Sequence record: PQ821640
Length of the DNA: 64,000 nt
DNA from: Escherichia phage SD2
Strand: one strand, 5' to 3'
Shown: piece by piece, positions 56,147 through 64,000 of the stretch
Layout of the letters: the number at the start of each line of letters is the position of its first letter
Position numbering within the stretch: the stretch's first letter is position 1
Translations under genes and position numbers: made by a program
The notes under the pieces: model-generated
The model's database searches: none
Seen by the model: the letters and a program-made list of their open reading frames with translations, nothing else
What the model was told of the DNA's origin: nothing

Positions 56147-57118
56147 TCACCATTTTGTATGGTTCGTCAAAAGTTGACGATGTTGAATCCAACCACAGAA
56201 GTTTCCACTCCACAAACGATGTTTACGATCCATATGTGTAATACCTTCTTCCCAAGAGGAAGGGAACGGAGGAATATTAATACCACCTTTCTGTTGTTTT
56301 AATCCTGACAAATCCATTTCTTTCATTGGCGTTGCCTGGTGTTCAAACGGAGATGCATGTACCTTTTGTCCAGACAGCAAACGAGAATAGATATCCAATG
56401 CTTTATCTTTAGTATCATTCAACTTACGATAACTTACCTGAGCGCAACAAGAAGCTGAAATAGCTTTTGCTTCATCTTCTGTCAACATTTTCTCGTTGGA
56501 GAAGGTTTCACCCAAGAAATAACGGATCATACCAGTTTCTGGATCTCGATCACGATTAACGTAAGGTGTATGCCATTCCCCTGGGAAAAGAAGATATGGT
56601 TCAGAAGATTCATACAGTTTTTTAATTTCTTTAGCAAGAGCCTCAATAGTAGGATCTGCATCAGCATCTACGCGCAACCACAAGAAGTTTTCTAGCTCTG
56701 TAGTGGTTACTACAGTCTTCATACGCTGAAATGGTTCTAGTAGGCGGTTTGCAACCTGTTTATGATAACCAGCAAGGGCAAACTCTTCTGCAAAACGTGC
56801 AGCACTTAGCGCAGCCAAGTCCCACCATTCTTTTGCAGTGTAACCTGCATCAATCAGGGCATCGTGATCTGTGCCTTTATCTTGCATACCTGGTTGGTTA
56901 GCACCAAAACGATAAGGACGTGCTGGAGATTGCCGTACCATTTCAATCAGGGTTTTAACAGGGATAGCTCGACTTGATGCTGCATTACGAGAAAACAAAC
57001 GATGCGTCATCAATTCAGAGTGAATGATTCGAGGATATTCAAGTTCAAAGGTAACAATATCCTTACCTTCGGATGTTTGAGAGTGTGCAATAATTTTTGC
57101 TGAAATAGAATTTGTCAT
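56147..57118 (-). CDS. ThyX-family (flavin-dependent thymidylate synthase-like) protein with atypical THR motif
   Basis: VTFELEYPRIIHSELMTHRLFSRNAASSRA aligns with the ThyX FTF...RHRxxSxNxxSxR region, but the first Arg of RHR is Thr; 323 aa, longer than typical ThyX. Confidence 0.6.
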   Translation of the reverse strand: MTNSISAKIIAHSQTSEGKDIVTFELEYPRIIHSELMTHRLFSRNAASSRAIPVKTLIEMVRQSPARPYRFGANQPGMQDKGTDHDALIDAGYTAKEWWDLAALSAARFAEEFALAGYHKQVANRLLEPFQRMKTVVTTTELENFLWLRVDADADPTIEALAKEIKKLYESSEPYLLFPGEWHTPYVNRDRDPETGMIRYFLGETFSNEKMLTEDEAKAISASCCAQVSYRKLNDTKDKALDIYSRLLSGQKVHASPFEHQATPMKEMDLSGLKQQKGGINIPPFPSSWEEGITHMDRKHRLWSGNFCGWIQHRQLLTNHTKW

Positions 57119-57127
57119 TATTTCTCC

Positions 57128-57718
57128 TTAAGGTAGTAAAATACTTTCAATTTCTTCCCACTGATTATTTAAACCAGTGATAATTACATTAGGAAGTTTC
57201 TTTAACTCTTCCAAATATGGATCTTCGTAAATAGTGTTGAAATATATTTTCAACGTTTCATCTGGAAACAGGACAAGATTTTCAGCCCTATCGTCAATAG
57301 TTACATCGCAAGGTAATAAGTATTTTTCTTTTGTTGCGAAAAAACCATTACCAGATGTTCTACTAAAATCCACTTTATCTAAAGATCGTGTTACGTGTCT
57401 ATATTTAGAACTAAGGTGTCCACCCTTAGTGTGACTCGCTATAGATATATTAGCTCCATTTGCAATTATACGATGAACAACATCTGTACTATTAGGTACT
57501 ACTCCCATAGTATCATATAGATGTTGGTTATCCCAAAAAGAGTAAGGATCTACACCAAATTGCTTTTTAAAATCAGGGAAATATTTCGTAATATCATAGT
57601 GCACAGTTTTATGTGTCTTATCAAATTTGATATTAGATCTACTTACCGCATTTAACCAATTTAACCATTCTATATCCGCTGGAGCTATTACTAAATCCCA
57701 ATCACATACTAGACGCAT
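57128..57718 (-). CDS. putative HAD-type 5'(3')-deoxyribonucleotidase
   Basis: Track ORF trimmed to ATG at 57718 (AGGAG SD); DWD near the N-terminus (VCDWDLVIA) resembles HAD motif I; tentative. Confidence 0.45.
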   Translation of the reverse strand: MRLVCDWDLVIAPADIEWLNWLNAVSRSNIKFDKTHKTVHYDITKYFPDFKKQFGVDPYSFWDNQHLYDTMGVVPNSTDVVHRIIANGANISIASHTKGGHLSSKYRHVTRSLDKVDFSRTSGNGFFATKEKYLLPCDVTIDDRAENLVLFPDETLKIYFNTIYEDPYLEELKKLPNVIITGLNNQWEEIESILLP

Positions 57719-58265
57719 TATTTCTCCTGTTATAACATTTTCTACACATTGTTTCGTAAATGTCTTCTCCTCCAATAACAATCTGTTCTTTAGAGTCGAT
57801 AAGTCTAGCATTGAAAATAGCTTTTCTTCCACATTTACAAATGCTTTTCAATTCTGTAATTGAATCTGCTATGGCTAATAACCGTTCAGAACCTTCAAAC
57901 AATTCTGTAGCAAAATCTGTTTTAAGTCCATAGCAGAATACAGGAATATCGTAATTATCTACCACATCTCCAAGAATGTCAACCATATCTTTAGTTAGGA
58001 ATTGTGATTCATCCACAAATACTGCATCTACTGGATTTTCTTTAAGTTGTGTATAAATTTCCAGCATATCTTCTTTTGTTTTAACTGGTTTTGCTTCCTC
58101 TTTAATACCTATCCTGGAAGCAATAGCACCACCAGATCTGGTATCTAAAGCTGAAGTTAAAAGAAGAACTTTCATATTTCTTTCTTTATAGTTCCAAGCT
58201 GTTTGTAGAAGATGTGTGCTTTTACCACTGTTCATCGGACTATATCGGAAATAAAGTTTAGCCAT
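57702..58265 (-). CDS. tdk: thymidine kinase
   Basis: MAKLYFRYSPMNSGKSTHLLQTAWNYKERNM closely matches the E. coli Tdk N-terminus as I recall it; C-terminal CxxC pairs. Confidence 0.9.
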   Translation of the reverse strand: MAKLYFRYSPMNSGKSTHLLQTAWNYKERNMKVLLLTSALDTRSGGAIASRIGIKEEAKPVKTKEDMLEIYTQLKENPVDAVFVDESQFLTKDMVDILGDVVDNYDIPVFCYGLKTDFATELFEGSERLLAIADSITELKSICKCGRKAIFNARLIDSKEQIVIGGEDIYETMCRKCYNRRNNASSM

Positions 58266-58310
58266 ATTTTCTCCTCTAACGCTCCCGTTTGTGGGAGCGA
58301 TAATACTTTA

Positions 58311-58886
58311 TTATTTCTCTTCGTCAAGAAGAATTTTTACTATTTGTTTTCTTCGCTTACTTACTGTACTTTCTGGTGAAATTCCGCGCTTCGTTAGCCA
58401 ATTTTTATCCTTTTTAGACTGGCATAAAGCTATCGCTTCCTTCTCCGCTTTTGCTTCCCTGAATGTCATATCGTGCTTGTCAGCATAAGCTAGGATAGCG
58501 TTACACTGCTTACAAACTACACGCAGGTCGTCTTCTGTTACATACAATAGGCGTAAAACAAAACTTGGGATATCTTCATAACAGGTTAATGTACCTGCTG
58601 CATTAATATGGTCTACTTGAAAATCTTTCATACCTCCTGTATGTCCACACAATTCACATTGACAATTCCAAACCTGTTTCGGTTTGCCTGTTTTCTTATC
58701 TAAAACTACATTGCCATCTTTATCCAACCTATCGGCTTTAAATCGTACAGATTGGATCTTTTTTATCTTATTCGGGTGTCTCACCCATGCTTTCCTTAAG
58801 CAACCCCTTAAATATGTATAAAAGGCTGCTTGAGTTTTCCAAGGTGTTCCATCTCCCCAAATAACTTTAGGTTCTTTATTTTCCAA
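58311..58886 (-). CDS. HNH-family endonuclease
   Basis: CQCELCGH...FQVDHINAAG...CKQCN pattern. Confidence 0.6.
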   Translation of the reverse strand: MENKEPKVIWGDGTPWKTQAAFYTYLRGCLRKAWVRHPNKIKKIQSVRFKADRLDKDGNVVLDKKTGKPKQVWNCQCELCGHTGGMKDFQVDHINAAGTLTCYEDIPSFVLRLLYVTEDDLRVVCKQCNAILAYADKHDMTFREAKAEKEAIALCQSKKDKNWLTKRGISPESTVSKRRKQIVKILLDEEK

Positions 58887-59076
58887 TAGTGCTCACCTTT
58901 TTAGCTACATAATCTCCAGGTGGAATGTTATATTTAAAGAAAAGCATACGGTCTAAACCCGCCTTACACATGTTTTCTGGGATTGTGATTGTATATAGGA
59001 GTTTATCTCCACGTTTATTGTATATTTTATATACTTCACCCTCTCCGTATTGTTTACCGTGAGAAGCCATCCACAC
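58876..59076 (-). CDS. hypothetical protein
   Basis: 66 aa. Confidence 0.55.
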   Translation of the reverse strand: MWMASHGKQYGEGEVYKIYNKRGDKLLYTITIPENMCKAGLDRMLFFKYNIPPGDYVAKKVSTIGK

Positions 59077-59455
59077 TCTCCTTCAATTGTTCAATAGCAT
59101 CTGCTGCTTCAATATACTTACCTTTATACATTGCTTTTAAAGCCTTACGAACAAGATCATCGTCTGTGTATAAATCAATTAGCTGATTAGCTAACTCAAT
59201 TTTTACAGGATTTTTTAAGTTAGGGTAGGCTTCATACAACATATTGTAATATTTATCACTCAATTCTTTTTCAATATGAATAACGTGAATCGCTTTGTTT
59301 AGGTTGATCACACGATCACCTTTGTTTCGACAAGCATACTTAGCTAATTTAGTGAAACAAGGAGTTGCACCAATTAGATATGCAAGTTCCAAAGGTTGCA
59401 TACGCATACGTTTGTAGTGATCACCATCAATTTGAATATCCAGTGCTGTAGTCAT
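59054..59455 (-). CDS. hypothetical protein
   Basis: 133 aa. Confidence 0.65.
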   Translation of the reverse strand: MTTALDIQIDGDHYKRMRMQPLELAYLIGATPCFTKLAKYACRNKGDRVINLNKAIHVIHIEKELSDKYYNMLYEAYPNLKNPVKIELANQLIDLYTDDDLVRKALKAMYKGKYIEAADAIEQLKESVDGFSR

Positions 59456-59465
59456 AAATCCTCCA

Positions 59466-59490
59466 AAAATAAAGGGGCTTTCGCCCCTTT
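59466..59490 (-). terminator. rho-independent terminator
   Basis: GGGGC-TTTC-GCCCC then TTTATTTTT on the minus strand. Confidence 0.7.
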
Positions 59491-59493
59491 TTA

Positions 59494-60456
59494 TTAAATT
59501 CCAATAACAGTGTTTACACGCTTCTCTTTGCTACGCAAATTAACACGTCCACGAGACAGGCTATTACATGATGTGCATCTTAGCACTTGGAATGTACTAA
59601 CCGCTGTTGTGTAAACCTTACCAGGAACAACTTCAAGGTGCTCTTTACCGCAACGAGGACAACGAAGTTTTTCATCGTCATAGAATGCAGATACGTTAGG
59701 ATGTTGTGGAATCCACGCACGAAGTTTGATGTAAAGATCTCTAAGAGAAACAACATCACCATCATTGTATGTTTGCATACGGAAGAAGGCGTGTCTGTCT
59801 CCTTCACAACATGCTTTCCACAAAGGAAAACCTTCATTATCAAGTTTAAAGTTTTCTGTATCAAAATACAAACACATTTCTTTAAGCGCATTAGAAGGTA
59901 GTGCAAACTGCTTCTTAGCTGCCTTGAGTGTATCAATTACAACATAGTGTGATGGTGGCTCCATACCGTGAAAAGCAAAACGTTGGTTAATATAAGCCTT
60001 ATCAAACTTAATACCGTTGTGCGCGATCACAATATCTGCATCGTCAAGCAAGTGCCACAGATCTTGACATAATTCCCAATCATCTGTATGATCTATGTCA
60101 AACAGAGGGTAATTGCTAAGGTTCTTACCTTCTACTTCTCCTGTTTCTAAATCAGCAGATGAATAGGAAAGCAAGTAACCTCGACGAATAACTTGTTCAG
60201 GTGCAATAAAGGCTTTGAAACGTGAGAAGCTATACACAATCTCCGGTGCTGTCTCTACGTCAATAATTTTAATTACTGGCCCACCTTTATCTTGCGGAGC
60301 ACCGCGATGTGGTGAATTTACACGAGCTAAGTAATCATTTACTGTGCTCTTCTTAGTAGAACTTCCCAACACCTCTTGTGCAATCTTACGCGAAGAATAA
60401 CCTTGTGCTTTCATAGATACAATCAAGGCTTTCTGTTCGTCTGTTAATTTACTCAA
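59494..60456 (-). CDS. DEDDh-type 3'-5' exonuclease with N-terminal HTH and C-terminal zinc ribbon
   Basis: IIDVETAP (Exo I), VIAHNGIKFDKAYI (Exo II), TYNDGD (Exo III-like); CPRCG...CTSCN at the C-terminus. Confidence 0.65.
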   Translation of the reverse strand: MSKLTDEQKALIVSMKAQGYSSRKIAQEVLGSSTKKSTVNDYLARVNSPHRGAPQDKGGPVIKIIDVETAPEIVYSFSRFKAFIAPEQVIRRGYLLSYSSADLETGEVEGKNLSNYPLFDIDHTDDWELCQDLWHLLDDADIVIAHNGIKFDKAYINQRFAFHGMEPPSHYVVIDTLKAAKKQFALPSNALKEMCLYFDTENFKLDNEGFPLWKACCEGDRHAFFRMQTYNDGDVVSLRDLYIKLRAWIPQHPNVSAFYDDEKLRCPRCGKEHLEVVPGKVYTTAVSTFQVLRCTSCNSLSRGRVNLRSKEKRVNTVIGI

Positions 60457-61487
60457 TGTTCCTCCTGCTCTGAAATATATGCTTGTAGCATACTTTCAAA
60501 AGTTGTTTCATCATTCGCCCAACGTTTCATATATACCAACTGAAAAATTGTCTCTATCCATTCGTCAGTTGTCATCTCTACTTCTTCACCATCCCAAGAA
60601 GTAAATTTAACGCCATCTGGGAACCATTCATAATACTGATCTTTAACTGTCTGAAAAAGTTCAGCCTGTGTTTTACATTTGGAAATAAGATTAAAGCAAG
60701 TAATATCTCCAAACTTAACATCGAAATCTTGGTAAGGTCGAATACTATCTGTCTTATCGCCCATTAGCATTTGATAAGCTAACCAGTAACTACCCCAACC
60801 CTTAATTTCTTTTTTCTTACCTTTTTCTACGATCCAGATATCACCGATAGATTCATCAATCAGAATAATACAAGGATTTTTATAAACACCATCCTCTTTA
60901 TAAAAGTTAAAGAGTAAACTTGGTGTGTGCAAGCTATCTTTGTCGATAGATGCTACAATATGAGAAAACTTACCAGTTTCCTTGTAGGCTTTATACCCTG
61001 CATACCCATAGATTTCTAAAGCATCATCTGCCTCAATACCAGTAACAACGTCACCGTTATGTTTTTCAACTAGATAATCTTTAGTATCTGATAAATGGAT
61101 TGGTCTTAAATCTGATCGTTCTGATTTATATTCTTTTGGCATTTTGAAAGAATGCCGGAAGGTTTTTCCTACCCCGATGACACCGCAATACTTTTGAAGT
61201 TTTAGGTGATCCATCATCTGGGTTATTTTTGTCTTTGCAGCTTGAAACGTAAAAGAAATATTATCTGGGACTATTTGAACATCTTTTATTTCAAAATCTT
61301 CTCTAGAGAACAACTTTTTACCAGAAGCTTCGCGTTGCGCGTTAAGTGCTCCTAACCATCCTCCAATATTTTTTGAAGATTTACCCCAAAAATCTGTTCT
61401 TGTTTCAAACTCTTTTACATTACCGGAAGCCTTGTGTACAGCGTGGATTTTTCTTTGTTCTAAAGCTGAAGACGCTTGGAACGCCAC
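60453..61487 (-). CDS. putative 5'-3' exonuclease / flap endonuclease family protein
   Basis: MLMGDKTDSIRPY resembles the FEN GDxxDNIPG motif; tentative. Confidence 0.45.
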   Translation of the reverse strand: MAFQASSALEQRKIHAVHKASGNVKEFETRTDFWGKSSKNIGGWLGALNAQREASGKKLFSREDFEIKDVQIVPDNISFTFQAAKTKITQMMDHLKLQKYCGVIGVGKTFRHSFKMPKEYKSERSDLRPIHLSDTKDYLVEKHNGDVVTGIEADDALEIYGYAGYKAYKETGKFSHIVASIDKDSLHTPSLLFNFYKEDGVYKNPCIILIDESIGDIWIVEKGKKKEIKGWGSYWLAYQMLMGDKTDSIRPYQDFDVKFGDITCFNLISKCKTQAELFQTVKDQYYEWFPDGVKFTSWDGEEVEMTTDEWIETIFQLVYMKRWANDETTFESMLQAYISEQEEH

Positions 61488-61579
61488 TTGATCGTAGTCT
61501 ATTGCAAGAATTGTGTTCTCGTCAACATATTTGTGCAGGTCTTCCGGTTGGATTAAAATGTAACCGCTAATATTACCTC

Positions 61580-61795
61580 CTATTCATCATCATCTGAACT
61601 CTCTGTTGAGAATGTTCGTGTGTAGGGACACTGACGACTTGCAGAAACCTCTATAACCTTGTCGTACATACCGTTAGAGTAAAAACAGTATTTTGTACTT
61701 CCAGAAACTTGTTCTCCAGAATTAATTAAAGTTATTTGACCAGCATAAGAATAAGAACTGATTACTAAAAGTAAACCGACAAGAAGTTTTTTCAT
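61580..61795 (-). CDS. small secreted protein
   Basis: MKKLLVGLLLVISSYSYAGQ signal-peptide-like N-terminus; GGAG SD. Confidence 0.6.
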   Translation of the reverse strand: MKKLLVGLLLVISSYSYAGQITLINSGEQVSGSTKYCFYSNGMYDKVIEVSASRQCPYTRTFSTESSDDDE

Positions 61796-61869
61796 GGTGT
61801 GTCTCCTTAAAAGCCCACCTAACTAAGTAGGTAGGCATATTAACACATATTAAATTAGTAAGTCAAGTA

Positions 61870-62754
61870 TTATTTTTGAATAGTTGACTTGATAAGGTCT
61901 TGCATAATACCACGGATTTCGTTAAAGCACAGAAGGACAGATGCTTCAAAAGATCCTTCTTCATCATTAAAGTATTTAGGGAATTTAATACCACTCAACT
62001 TAAATTCTTTATCAACAATAAAGTTAACGAAACCGTCATATTCCAGGCCAATGGCAACAACGTGCTTACCATCTTCCATAAGTTCTACTGCACGAGATTC
62101 ATAAAGGGACTCTTTACTCCATACAACCACACCTTCCGAATCTTCAAGTTTAATATAATTACCCAGGGTCAGTCGTTCAGCCTCATGTTCTTCTAAGATG
62201 GTATCAAAACCTTTAATAATGGCTTCTTCGTGTACACTAAACGGCAGAACTGGGAAAGTACCCAACACCTCACGAAGAAATACAGCAATATCTTCACTAA
62301 TTTTCTTAGAACCATTAAGAACATAGGTAATACTGTTTTCAGTGTCTACAACAACATAGTTATAGAAATCATCTGCCTCTGTTTCTGGGAGCAGAGAAAA
62401 GACAATATCAGCCTCAATTGCTTTTTTGCTTTCTTTGTCCAAGAAGAACTCTTTAGTAGGATTTGCAGCAATAAACTCTTGTTCCATCTCCTGGAGTTTT
62501 TCATTAAGAATGCGTTTAACTTTCTTCTTGTTAACTTTCTTAACAGACTGCCCTACTTTAATAACCTCTAAACCAGAGAACACTTTTACATAGGAACCAT
62601 CATCTTCAAAACGAACAAGACCAATGGTATGTGCTTGTTGCCCCTGTGCCACAACAAAATCCAGCGGTTTGTCTGTTACTGTGTTCAGTGCTGAAATAGA
62701 CAGACCATCACCAGAAATCAGGGTTACGCAAGATTTGAAATTTTTAGCAAACAT
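61870..62754 (-). CDS. rdgC: RdgC-like recombination-associated protein
   Basis: Track start is TTG; ATG at 62754 has GAGGAG SD. SLLPETEADDFYNYVVVDTEN...LREVLGTFPVLPFS aligns with my recollection of E. coli RdgC. Confidence 0.6.
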   Translation of the reverse strand: MFAKNFKSCVTLISGDGLSISALNTVTDKPLDFVVAQGQQAHTIGLVRFEDDGSYVKVFSGLEVIKVGQSVKKVNKKKVKRILNEKLQEMEQEFIAANPTKEFFLDKESKKAIEADIVFSLLPETEADDFYNYVVVDTENSITYVLNGSKKISEDIAVFLREVLGTFPVLPFSVHEEAIIKGFDTILEEHEAERLTLGNYIKLEDSEGVVVWSKESLYESRAVELMEDGKHVVAIGLEYDGFVNFIVDKEFKLSGIKFPKYFNDEEGSFEASVLLCFNEIRGIMQDLIKSTIQK

Positions 62755-62764
62755 AGTTTTCTCC

Positions 62765-63043
62765 TCAAATAACAACTACAAAATATTTTACACCATCATA
62801 TTCGACAATATGATCAGGATATTTAAATCCTTTATAAGATTTACCAAACAGACTAACAGCTTCATTAGCTTTGTTTTGCGGATTACTCAACCACTGTTCT
62901 TCTGTGTAAAACTTAAATTCTGTTCTCTTACCTTCTTTTTCTAAACCAACAATTTCCTGTGTGATATCTTCAATACCTGCATTCTTCAAGGATTTAATTA
63001 CCTGACGCAAACCGTGTTTAAAGATATCTTCTGCTGTTAACAT
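62765..63043 (-). CDS. hypothetical protein
   Basis: 92 aa; GGAGG SD. Confidence 0.6.
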   Translation of the reverse strand: MLTAEDIFKHGLRQVIKSLKNAGIEDITQEIVGLEKEGKRTEFKFYTEEQWLSNPQNKANEAVSLFGKSYKGFKYPDHIVEYDGVKYFVVVI

Positions 63044-63056
63044 AATACCTCCAATA

Positions 63057-63072
63057 AGCCCCCGAAGGGGCT
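63057..63072. terminator. intergenic hairpin (possible terminator)
   Basis: AGCCCC-CGAA-GGGGCT; T-rich on the plus side only. Confidence 0.4.
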
Positions 63073-63079
63073 TTATTTC

Positions 63080-63802
63080 TTAAGCAATGATTGCTGCGAT
63101 ATTAGGTTTAACAAAGGTAGATGGCTTCATAATTTTACCTTTGTCATCAAAGAATACGTATACCTTTTGAACTTCGTTATATACAGCATGTACTCCAGTA
63201 TAAGAACCTTCTGCACGATCTTTGCTTCGCATCTCGATAGCATCACACTCTTTTTCAAGAGCTTCAACAATATCCTTAGTTTCCCAAATAGCCAGGAGTT
63301 GCTTCTTGGTAGGATACTTGGACTCATTGCTATTCAACACTTCACGCATAACCTTCTTCTCGTTATAAACAGAACGCACCAAAGTATCTCGTGCCATACG
63401 TGTAAGTGTAAGAGACATTAGGGCAAATTGCAAGTCATTTTCTACCATTTTATCAAATTCAATGATAACATCGTAAATGTTTTCTGCCAGAACATCTCCT
63501 GTCGGCATTTCCAGAGCTTTATCAACACCTTCTTTACCAAAGAACATAAACGCCAGGTAGGATGCTACCACAAAAATATCTGCTGCTGCATCAAGTAATT
63601 CAACGTGATCATTTTCCTGTGCTGCTGCTTGGAACTCTTTTAGTTCTTCTCGTACAAAAGAAAGTTGAGCTTCAAACATCTCTTGAGTAAACTCTGGAGT
63701 TACGCCACCACGTGCCTTAGCATTCCAAGCAACAATTTGATCGGCAGCTTTGATAAAGAAGCTATTGTCCACTTTTACTTGTTTGAAAAAATTCTCGATC
63801 AT
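63080..63802 (-). CDS. putative MazG-like nucleotide pyrophosphohydrolase
   Basis: EELKEFQAAAQENDHVELLDAAADIFVV resembles the MazG EExxE...D motif; tentative. Confidence 0.45.
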   Translation of the reverse strand: MIENFFKQVKVDNSFFIKAADQIVAWNAKARGGVTPEFTQEMFEAQLSFVREELKEFQAAAQENDHVELLDAAADIFVVASYLAFMFFGKEGVDKALEMPTGDVLAENIYDVIIEFDKMVENDLQFALMSLTLTRMARDTLVRSVYNEKKVMREVLNSNESKYPTKKQLLAIWETKDIVEALEKECDAIEMRSKDRAEGSYTGVHAVYNEVQKVYVFFDDKGKIMKPSTFVKPNIAAIIA

Positions 63803-63811
63803 TATTTCTCC

Positions 63812-63991
63812 TTATTTAAAATATTGTTCTAACAAAACACTAATGCGAACTACCGATTCGCCCATATACGCCCCAGCACAGAGGAAAACAACAAATCTAC
63901 AAAAATTGCAGTACCATTTGTTCACTGGAAACGAGGCTAACATTATAATTGCAATAGCAATTAACATCATAAGAAATGTTACTAATACCAT
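63812..63991 (-). CDS. small membrane protein (59 aa)
   Basis: MVLVTFLMMLIAIAIIMLASFPVNKWYCNFCRFVVFLCAG...; GAGG SD; below track cutoff. Confidence 0.35.
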   Translation of the reverse strand: MVLVTFLMMLIAIAIIMLASFPVNKWYCNFCRFVVFLCAGAYMGESVVRISVLLEQYFK

Positions 63992-64000
63992 ATTTACCTC

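Follow-up and report, generated by a model that had tools for sequence, protein, structure and literature searches.

The locus considered here raises the question of whether a phage exonuclease that bears the name of a DNA polymerase subunit serves a polymerase at all. The gene lies at positions 59494-60456, on the minus strand (as do all of its parts and signals given below), of a 64,000-nucleotide stretch of DNA from Escherichia phage SD2 (sequence record PQ821640), the whole of which we refer to as the window. A preliminary description of this DNA had recognized a DEDDh exonuclease between a helix-turn-helix (HTH)-like N-terminus and a zinc ribbon, and had taken the arrangement to suggest a targeted nuclease rather than a simple proofreading subunit. 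The counterpart of the gene in phage vB_EcoM_PHB05 (NC_052652; hereafter PHB05) is gp078, with the RefSeq name "DNA polymerase exonuclease subunit", and one homolog (P0001) is 100% identical to the encoded 320-residue protein. Many Escherichia phages of the genus Justusliebigvirus (phi92-like, Stephanstirmvirinae), PHB05 among them, share 99.0-99.4% identity with the region from 57000 to 64000, and the source phage is a phi92-like E. coli myophage of that genus. The encoded enzyme is a stand-alone 3'-5' exonuclease of the DEDDy class, with an HTH at its N-terminus and a zinc ribbon at its C-terminus. We give somewhat better than even odds (a probability of about 0.55) to the reading that this is a free-standing enzyme, tethered through its ribbon and HTH, that trims DNA 3' ends and is not a proofreader.

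An AlphaFold2 model of the protein was built on an alignment of 44 homologs (A1) with identities to the query of 28-80%, and has a mean predicted local distance difference test (pLDDT) score of 93.2. The columns of this alignment that are invariant correspond to D66, E68, D152, K204, L212, W213, Y230, D234, C266, C269, C294 and C297. Conservation over 44 homologs is far beyond chance, and we therefore regard both the catalytic residues and the zinc ribbon as real. Residues 61-250 (59707-60276) form an alpha/beta domain in the model and contain the ExoI (D66-x-E68), ExoII (N147-x3-F151-D152) and ExoIII (Y230-x3-D234) motifs, together with the invariant K204.

These motifs place the protein in the DEDD (DnaQ-like fold) superfamily of 3'-5' exonucleases and, within it, in the DEDDy subgroup with its PolB-type exonuclease domain. 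The exonuclease module of the preliminary description is thus real, and it is the subtype that has to be changed: Y230-x3-D234 is found in all 44 sequences, and their ExoIII region contains no conserved histidine. The residue that aligns near the catalytic H162 of epsilon (position 207) is a histidine in 19 of the 44, an asparagine (as in the query) in 13 and a threonine in 12. For these reasons we rejected assignment to the DEDDh subgroup, which includes epsilon, RNase T, TREX and ExoI/X. By analogy with the chemistry of the DEDD superfamily, the enzyme should use two metal ions.

The closest resemblance of the catalytic domain is to the editing domain of family-B DNA polymerases; it is PolB-like rather than DnaQ-like. 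The query matches Pfam PF13482 at 27.9 bits (cut-off 22), and this model is matched by 42 of the 44 homologs, with PolB_exo1 and PolB_exo2 each matched by 16. The nearest folds of the model are polymerase proofreading domains; in the viral structure library BFVD members of the family lead (LKA1 gp34 being the best), and most of the other matches are PolB enzymes. A published classification of the superfamily likewise set the phage PF13482 cluster, F.23, beside the PolB exonuclease clusters (Majorek et al. 2014, PMC3985635). The Pol III epsilon equivalog models were rejected, with scores of 28.1 bits against a cut-off of 196 (NCBIfam NF004316) and 20.6 against 222.7 (TIGR01406). The protein is not itself a family-B DNA polymerase, having 320 residues and no polymerase domain, nor a polymerase fusion or fragment, since there is no polymerase-sized protein among the best 150 representative clusters. 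The longest members of those clusters have 448-587 residues, and in the ones that were checked the surplus is an intein-like insertion or an N-terminal extension.

The C-terminal part of the protein contains a Cys4 zinc ribbon (residues 262-306; 59539-59673), identified from the alignment, the model and the Pfam matches of the homologs. Its two knuckles, C266-x2-C269 and C294-x2-C297 (the CPRCG and CTSCN of the preliminary description), are invariant in 44/44 sequences, down to 28% identity. In the model they sit on a small three-stranded sheet (residues 274-283, 288-294 and 300-306), and homologs match the Pfam Lar, PaaD and Zn_ribbon families. This is the layout of the Cys4 ribbon class, with two CxxC knuckles on a small beta-sheet, and the domain is predicted to bind zinc. 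A conserved SRxR, containing the near-invariant R302, precedes a basic C-terminal tail (residues 307-320; 59497-59538) for which the alignment gives the family consensus NLxxKE.

At the other end of the protein, residues 1-47 (60316-60456) form a three-helix HTH of the LuxR/GerE, resolvase and transposase type, as judged from the model and from profile matches of the homologs. The segment SMKAQGYSSRKIAQEV, previously picked out as HTH-like, falls within a confident three-helix bundle (helices at residues 6-17, 22-30 and 33-46, with pLDDT values of 87-95), and the domain folds in the same way when modelled alone (pLDDT 90.3). The query itself matches Pfam HTH_38 below threshold (E 0.036; 14.3 bits against a cut-off of 27). 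Among the 44 homologs, HTH_38 is matched by 12 (best 4e-6), HTH_23 by six and GerE by six. A profile of the N-terminal domain searched against the PDB found the HTH of NarL (E 4e-4), followed by those of the Sleeping Beauty transposase and the Tn3/gamma-delta resolvases; we therefore place the domain in the tri-helical HTH class (HTH_38, LuxR-GerE, resolvase-transposase). Foldseek neighbours of the isolated HTH are LuxR-type, IstA, Tc3, Pax and GcrA DNA-binding domains, with TM-scores of 0.6-0.78 and E-values that are non-significant for so short a query; we take these model-based matches as supportive, not as proof. Between the HTH and the catalytic domain is a linker (residues ~48-60; 60277-60315) that has lower pLDDT values (73-77), is rich in gaps and varies in length among the homologs. 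In its observations, then, the preliminary description is partly confirmed: both flanking domains are real, so that the protein is not a plain epsilon-like subunit without additional domains, and the error concerns the exonuclease subtype.

In such HTHs the third helix is usually the recognition helix. Its S-T-V core, together with R23, is invariant in 24 diverse HTH-bearing homologs, which are metagenomic and extend down to 19% identity; variants of the helix read ESTVRN in Cronobacter phage PBES 02 and ESSIRH in ICP1. An invariant core in homologs so diverse argues against recognition of a phage-specific sequence, and appears to fit better with generic contact to DNA, or with a conserved partner, than with a site peculiar to each phage.

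Within a very large and already catalogued phage family the protein is nothing out of the ordinary, being neither surprising nor new. It belongs to PHROG 403 (and Pfam PF13482), matching the former with an E-value of 5.8e-108 over residues 5-319, for a profile length of 321; a match so nearly full-length indicates that the existing family model already covers all three modules in this arrangement. Relatives were found by tblastn in 1586 phage records (608 Mycobacterium, 217 Escherichia, 214 Pseudomonas and 95 Vibrio), with phiKMV-like phages and ICP1 among the matches listed. When a profile was run against 1.84 billion cluster representatives, 7630 clusters passed E<=1e-3 and at least 3062 (clustered at 50% identity) passed E<=1e-30, with lengths mostly of 256-350 residues.

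Comparison of the members indicates that the exonuclease and the zinc ribbon are the conserved core of the PHROG 403 family, and that the HTH is an optional, exchangeable accessory. Its place may be taken by another short helical segment, by NUMOD1 (homologs P0046 and P0079) or by a second CxxC...CxxC ribbon (P0063 and P0067). An additional N-terminal region of 135 residues without a family match is present in P0104, and the phage PT2 homolog of phiKMV gp24 has a different N-terminal extension of ~90 residues. In the ~260-residue forms, and in gp114 of mycobacteriophage Lilac and gp38 of Ramsey, the module is absent altogether. Its absence from many members implies that it is not needed for the core function.

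Three homologs (P0139, P0143 and P0194, of 571, 587 and 576 residues) contain an insertion of ~255 residues placed exactly within the ExoII motif, with borders that read VLVGHN/CVHKDT at the start and SGYAMHN/CNNFDIPII at the end. The insertion has the hallmarks of an intein in its sequence (a first cysteine, a terminal His-Asn and a +1 cysteine), and matched none of the Pfam and PHROG models at 1e-3. Inteins usually sit in conserved active-site motifs of replication-type proteins, and we read the location of this intein-like insert as pointing to a functionally important site.

We then considered how the exonuclease relates to the DNA polymerase of the phage. The phage encodes a T7-like PolA of 859 residues (PHB05 gp153), of which the polymerase domain aligns with T7 DNA polymerase and the N-terminus carries canonical editing motifs (TFDIESN, GHNIINFD and YCIYD, corresponding to DxE, NxxxFD and Yx3D). 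In PHB05 the exonuclease gene is ~61 kb from the block encoding PolA and the primase/helicase. The temperate cluster-F mycobacteriophage Ramsey encodes a clear member of the family (gp38), complete with DxE, Yx3D and a ribbon, and no polymerase is annotated among its genes 32-108; genes 1-31 we take to be the virion structural arm in this cluster. The editing motifs of the phage's own PolA, together with the presence of a member in Ramsey, make an obligatory role as a polymerase subunit unlikely. In phage PT2, the N-terminus of the DNA polymerase (L005:523-1500) has an ExoI motif (LDLETE), an atypical ExoII (AHNAMFES) and no obvious Y-x3-D.

The exonuclease gene follows, on the same strand, a gene for a 344-residue exonuclease of PHROG 107 (60453-61487, minus strand), and the two overlap. 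The open reading frame (ORF) of the former, as listed for the window, runs over 320 codons plus stop at exactly the positions given by the preliminary description, and begins with a TTG codon that shares bases with the TGA stop of the gene before it (TTGA). This overlap suggests translational coupling. A Shine-Dalgarno sequence, AGGAGG (60461-60466, read from the sequence), is found four bases 5' of the TTG, and homologs at 70-80% identity share the N-terminus MSKLT(D/E/S)EQK in the alignment; taken together with the TTGA overlap, these features make the TTG start credible. The upstream protein is homologous to PT2_gp22 of phage PT2, which is annotated as an exonuclease (E 2e-7), shares 41% identity with its counterpart in Cronobacter phage PBES 02, also an exonuclease, and is labelled 5'-exodeoxyribonuclease in several records. 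Searches of its sequence against the PDB and Pfam were without a match, and its identity as a 5'-exonuclease therefore rests on PHROG 107 and on the homology to PT2_gp22.

In the window, the same block also encodes an HNH endonuclease, RdgC, thymidine kinase, ThyX and a MazG-like pyrophosphohydrolase, and the nuclease, recombination and nucleotide-metabolism genes of the phage's block include ribonucleotide reductase as well. A comparable neighbourhood is seen in Krylovirinae (PT2), Vequintavirinae (PBES 02), ICP1 and Nankokuvirus RP11, which are unrelated lineages. On the upstream side, PT2 and PBES 02 have a PHROG-107-type exonuclease and an endonuclease VII, and ICP1 has such an exonuclease ~4 kb away. 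Downstream are a deoxynucleoside triphosphate pyrophosphohydrolase in PT2 and a thymidylate synthase in PBES 02, ICP1 and RP11, with a ribonucleotide reductase also in RP11. Each of the two exonuclease families (PHROG 403-type and PHROG 107-type) matches exactly 217 records with an organism name starting 'Escherichia', and these equal counts suggest that the families co-occur.

On the basis of this context of nuclease and nucleotide-metabolism genes, and of the recurrent 5'-exonuclease partner, we favour a role in 3'-end processing. We infer that the DEDDy site would remove nucleotides from the 3' ends of DNA, with the HTH, the zinc ribbon and the basic C-terminal tail serving as nucleic-acid tethers that could hold the enzyme on its substrate; in this lineage, the flexible linker would connect the catalytic domain to the small HTH. 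The exonuclease would be made jointly with the apparently coupled 5'-exonuclease encoded by the overlapping gene and act as its 3'-end-processing partner. Its job would most likely be to trim 3' ends and flaps in replication or recombination intermediates, to finish the breakdown of host DNA to mononucleotides, or both.

Several points weigh against this role. The synteny covers a broad DNA-metabolism block and so does not separate roles in recombination, salvage and replication. A literature search found no functional study of any PHROG 403-type member, including ICP1 gp189 and phiKMV gp24. The sole experimental hint is the moderate toxicity to M. smegmatis of the overexpressed 'DnaQ-like exonuclease' Girr gp37 (273 residues, cluster F1; PMC11075535), a protein whose membership in the family we infer from its cluster and size. 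Finally, in phages with a phiKMV-type PolA, which has atypical ExoII and ExoIII motifs, it is possible from the sequence that the DEDDy exonuclease provides proofreading in trans.

That last point bears on the explanation implied by the database names, namely that the protein is a trans-acting proofreading subunit that would dock on PolA of the phage, or on the replicase of the host where the phage has no polymerase, and edit misincorporated 3' nucleotides, much as DnaQ epsilon does for Pol III. Its nearest folds are indeed polymerase proofreading domains, and there are weak sequence matches to epsilon. Those matches are far below the equivalog cut-off, however (28 against 196 bits), and the catalytic signature is of the DEDDy and not the DEDDh type; PolA of this phage has kept canonical exonuclease motifs, and the gene is placed at the distance given above from the polymerase-primase/helicase block, beside nucleases and nucleotide-metabolism genes. 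No polymerase-sized protein appears among the 150 best representative clusters, and we consider the proofreading role unlikely. A highly improbable explanation, in our estimation, is a counter-defence or RNA-directed exonuclease that degrades retron or DRT complementary DNA or signalling oligonucleotides, or that processes RNA 3' ends. The wide distribution of the family across unrelated phages would agree with such a function, but the best structural matches are DNA-polymerase editing domains, and the gene lies in a core DNA-metabolism block and not in an accessory or early region; no PADLOC or other anti-defence evidence came to light, and none was looked for.

The explanation put forward in the preliminary description, a sequence- or site-targeted nuclease, would have the exonuclease brought to a specific DNA site (such as a genome end, a nick, an origin or an element of a competitor or the host) by its HTH, or in relatives by NUMOD1 or an additional ribbon. 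The interchangeable N-terminal modules (HTH_38, HTH_23, HTH_7 and NUMOD1) are typical of transposases, resolvases and homing endonucleases, and a flexible linker joins the module to the catalytic domain. Against this, many members (the ~260-residue forms, Lilac gp114 and Ramsey gp38) have no such module, the helix-3 core and R23 do not vary across diverse homologs, and an exonuclease requires a DNA end rather than a sequence; site targeting therefore seems to us quite improbable. It is very doubtful, in the same way, that the exchangeable modules across the family guide the enzyme to certain sites or structures in DNA, for example the ends of genomes, nicks, or the DNA of a host or competitor. 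If they did, the family would consist of targeted, DNA-end-destroying or anti-competitor/anti-defence nucleases and not of housekeeping trimmers. The interpretation offered by the preliminary description is thus supported in part: that the protein is not a simple proofreading subunit agrees with the epsilon scores, with the motifs of PolA and with the Ramsey member, and the proposed targeting finds no support, the HTH being optional and exchangeable.

The trimming of 3' ends by a free-standing enzyme remains the reading that we prefer, and the value of the analysis is mainly one of annotation. Proteins of this family are present in ~1,600 sequenced phages and thousands of metagenomic clusters, and the labels that they routinely receive are "DnaQ-like" and "DNA polymerase exonuclease subunit". 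The analysis shows that the family is one of free-standing, PolB-type DEDDy exonucleases with an obligatory zinc ribbon, and its members are probably not polymerase subunits in phages whose PolA already proofreads. A basic biochemical study of PHROG 403-type exonucleases would fill a real gap.

Several other features of the region were recorded. A terminator-like hairpin (AAAGGGGC, GAAA and GCCCCTTT, followed by ATTTTT; 59471-59490, minus strand) begins four bases past the stop codon of the exonuclease gene. It is GC-rich, is followed by a T-run and falls within the 38-bp gap before the next gene. A scan of 3.2 kb gave only two sites of this kind where 1.5 would be expected; the hairpin is a candidate intrinsic terminator or attenuator inside a long run of same-strand genes, suggestive only by its position. 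Between the exonuclease and the HNH endonuclease are two small conserved genes on the minus strand, one of PHROG 10946 (133 residues; 59054-59455) and one of PHROG 4903 (66 residues; 58876-59076). The HNH endonuclease itself (PHROG 1985; 58311-58886, minus strand) has a weak match to the endonuclease VII family. Farther along, the longest ORF downstream of the thymidine kinase gene (57128-57832, minus strand, GTG start, 234 residues) overlaps that gene (57702-58265) by 131 bases, and its RefSeq counterpart in PHB05 is shorter (gp073, 196 residues). The shorter RefSeq product and the overlap indicate that this GTG start is probably not real.

The searches with this region also returned records labelled 'Campylobacter phage'. 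Those of A145, C3 and A110a (MG065645, MG065656 and MG065689; also MG065672 and others), for which the host is given as C. jejuni, match positions 57000-64000 of the window and are 99.0% identical over 7 kb to E. coli Justusliebigvirus phages. Further records of this kind (A141, A135 and others) match both exonuclease proteins at 38-40% identity, as do the E. coli phages bov25_3 and FV3. The Campylobacter host labels of these records look doubtful.

Among the publications considered for comparison, a paper on serine-integrase recombination directionality factors (PMC11795197) concerns a calcineurin-like exonuclease and a DRT10 preprint concerns a trigger protein resembling single-stranded DNA-binding protein, both of which are unrelated to the enzyme described here; a paper on lambdoid Rec modules mentions DnaQ-like nucleases in general terms only. 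The mrfB gene (formerly yprB) is part of a mitomycin C-specific repair pathway (10.1101/426304). Its B. subtilis product, MrfB (YprB, PDB 8UN9), is the characterized bacterial member of Pfam PF13482, the family of the phage protein, and is also a stand-alone exonuclease, acting in DNA repair, but belongs to a different branch, and the phage family profile matches it weakly (E 0.015). TPR repeats are a feature of members of the COG3359 type (Majorek et al. 2014). MrfB acts together with a helicase, MrfA. Assignment to this type was rejected, since there is no TPR match in the query or its homologs and the C-terminus is a zinc ribbon. No helicase adjoins the exonuclease gene, whose neighbours encode an exonuclease, RdgC, an HNH endonuclease and hypothetical proteins.

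DnaQ, the epsilon subunit of Pol III, differs in being a DEDDh enzyme (H-x4-D, in place of the Y-x3-D found here) without an HTH or a ribbon. T4 DexA and E. coli ExoI and ExoX are DNA exonucleases that, like the phage protein, are free-standing and of the DEDD superfamily; they are not close to it in sequence, belong to the DEDDh class and have neither ribbon nor HTH. The pairing of a 3'- with a 5'-exonuclease may be likened in its logic to T7 gp3/gp6 or to T4 DexA. Sequence identity to the 3'-5' exonuclease domain of family-B polymerases (archaeal PolB, Pol epsilon and delta, E. coli Pol II and T4/RB69 gp43) is only 8-19%, and the phage protein differs from these enzymes in being free-standing, without a polymerase domain, and in the addition of an HTH and a zinc ribbon. 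The same architecture is found from end to end in PHROG 403 and PF13482 cluster F.23, which include the PT2 homolog of phiKMV gp24, LKA1 gp34, ICP1 ORF189 and the mycobacteriophage 'DnaQ-like' exonucleases; these proteins share the DEDDy residues and the Cys4 ribbon with the protein described here, and differ from it only in the N-terminal module.
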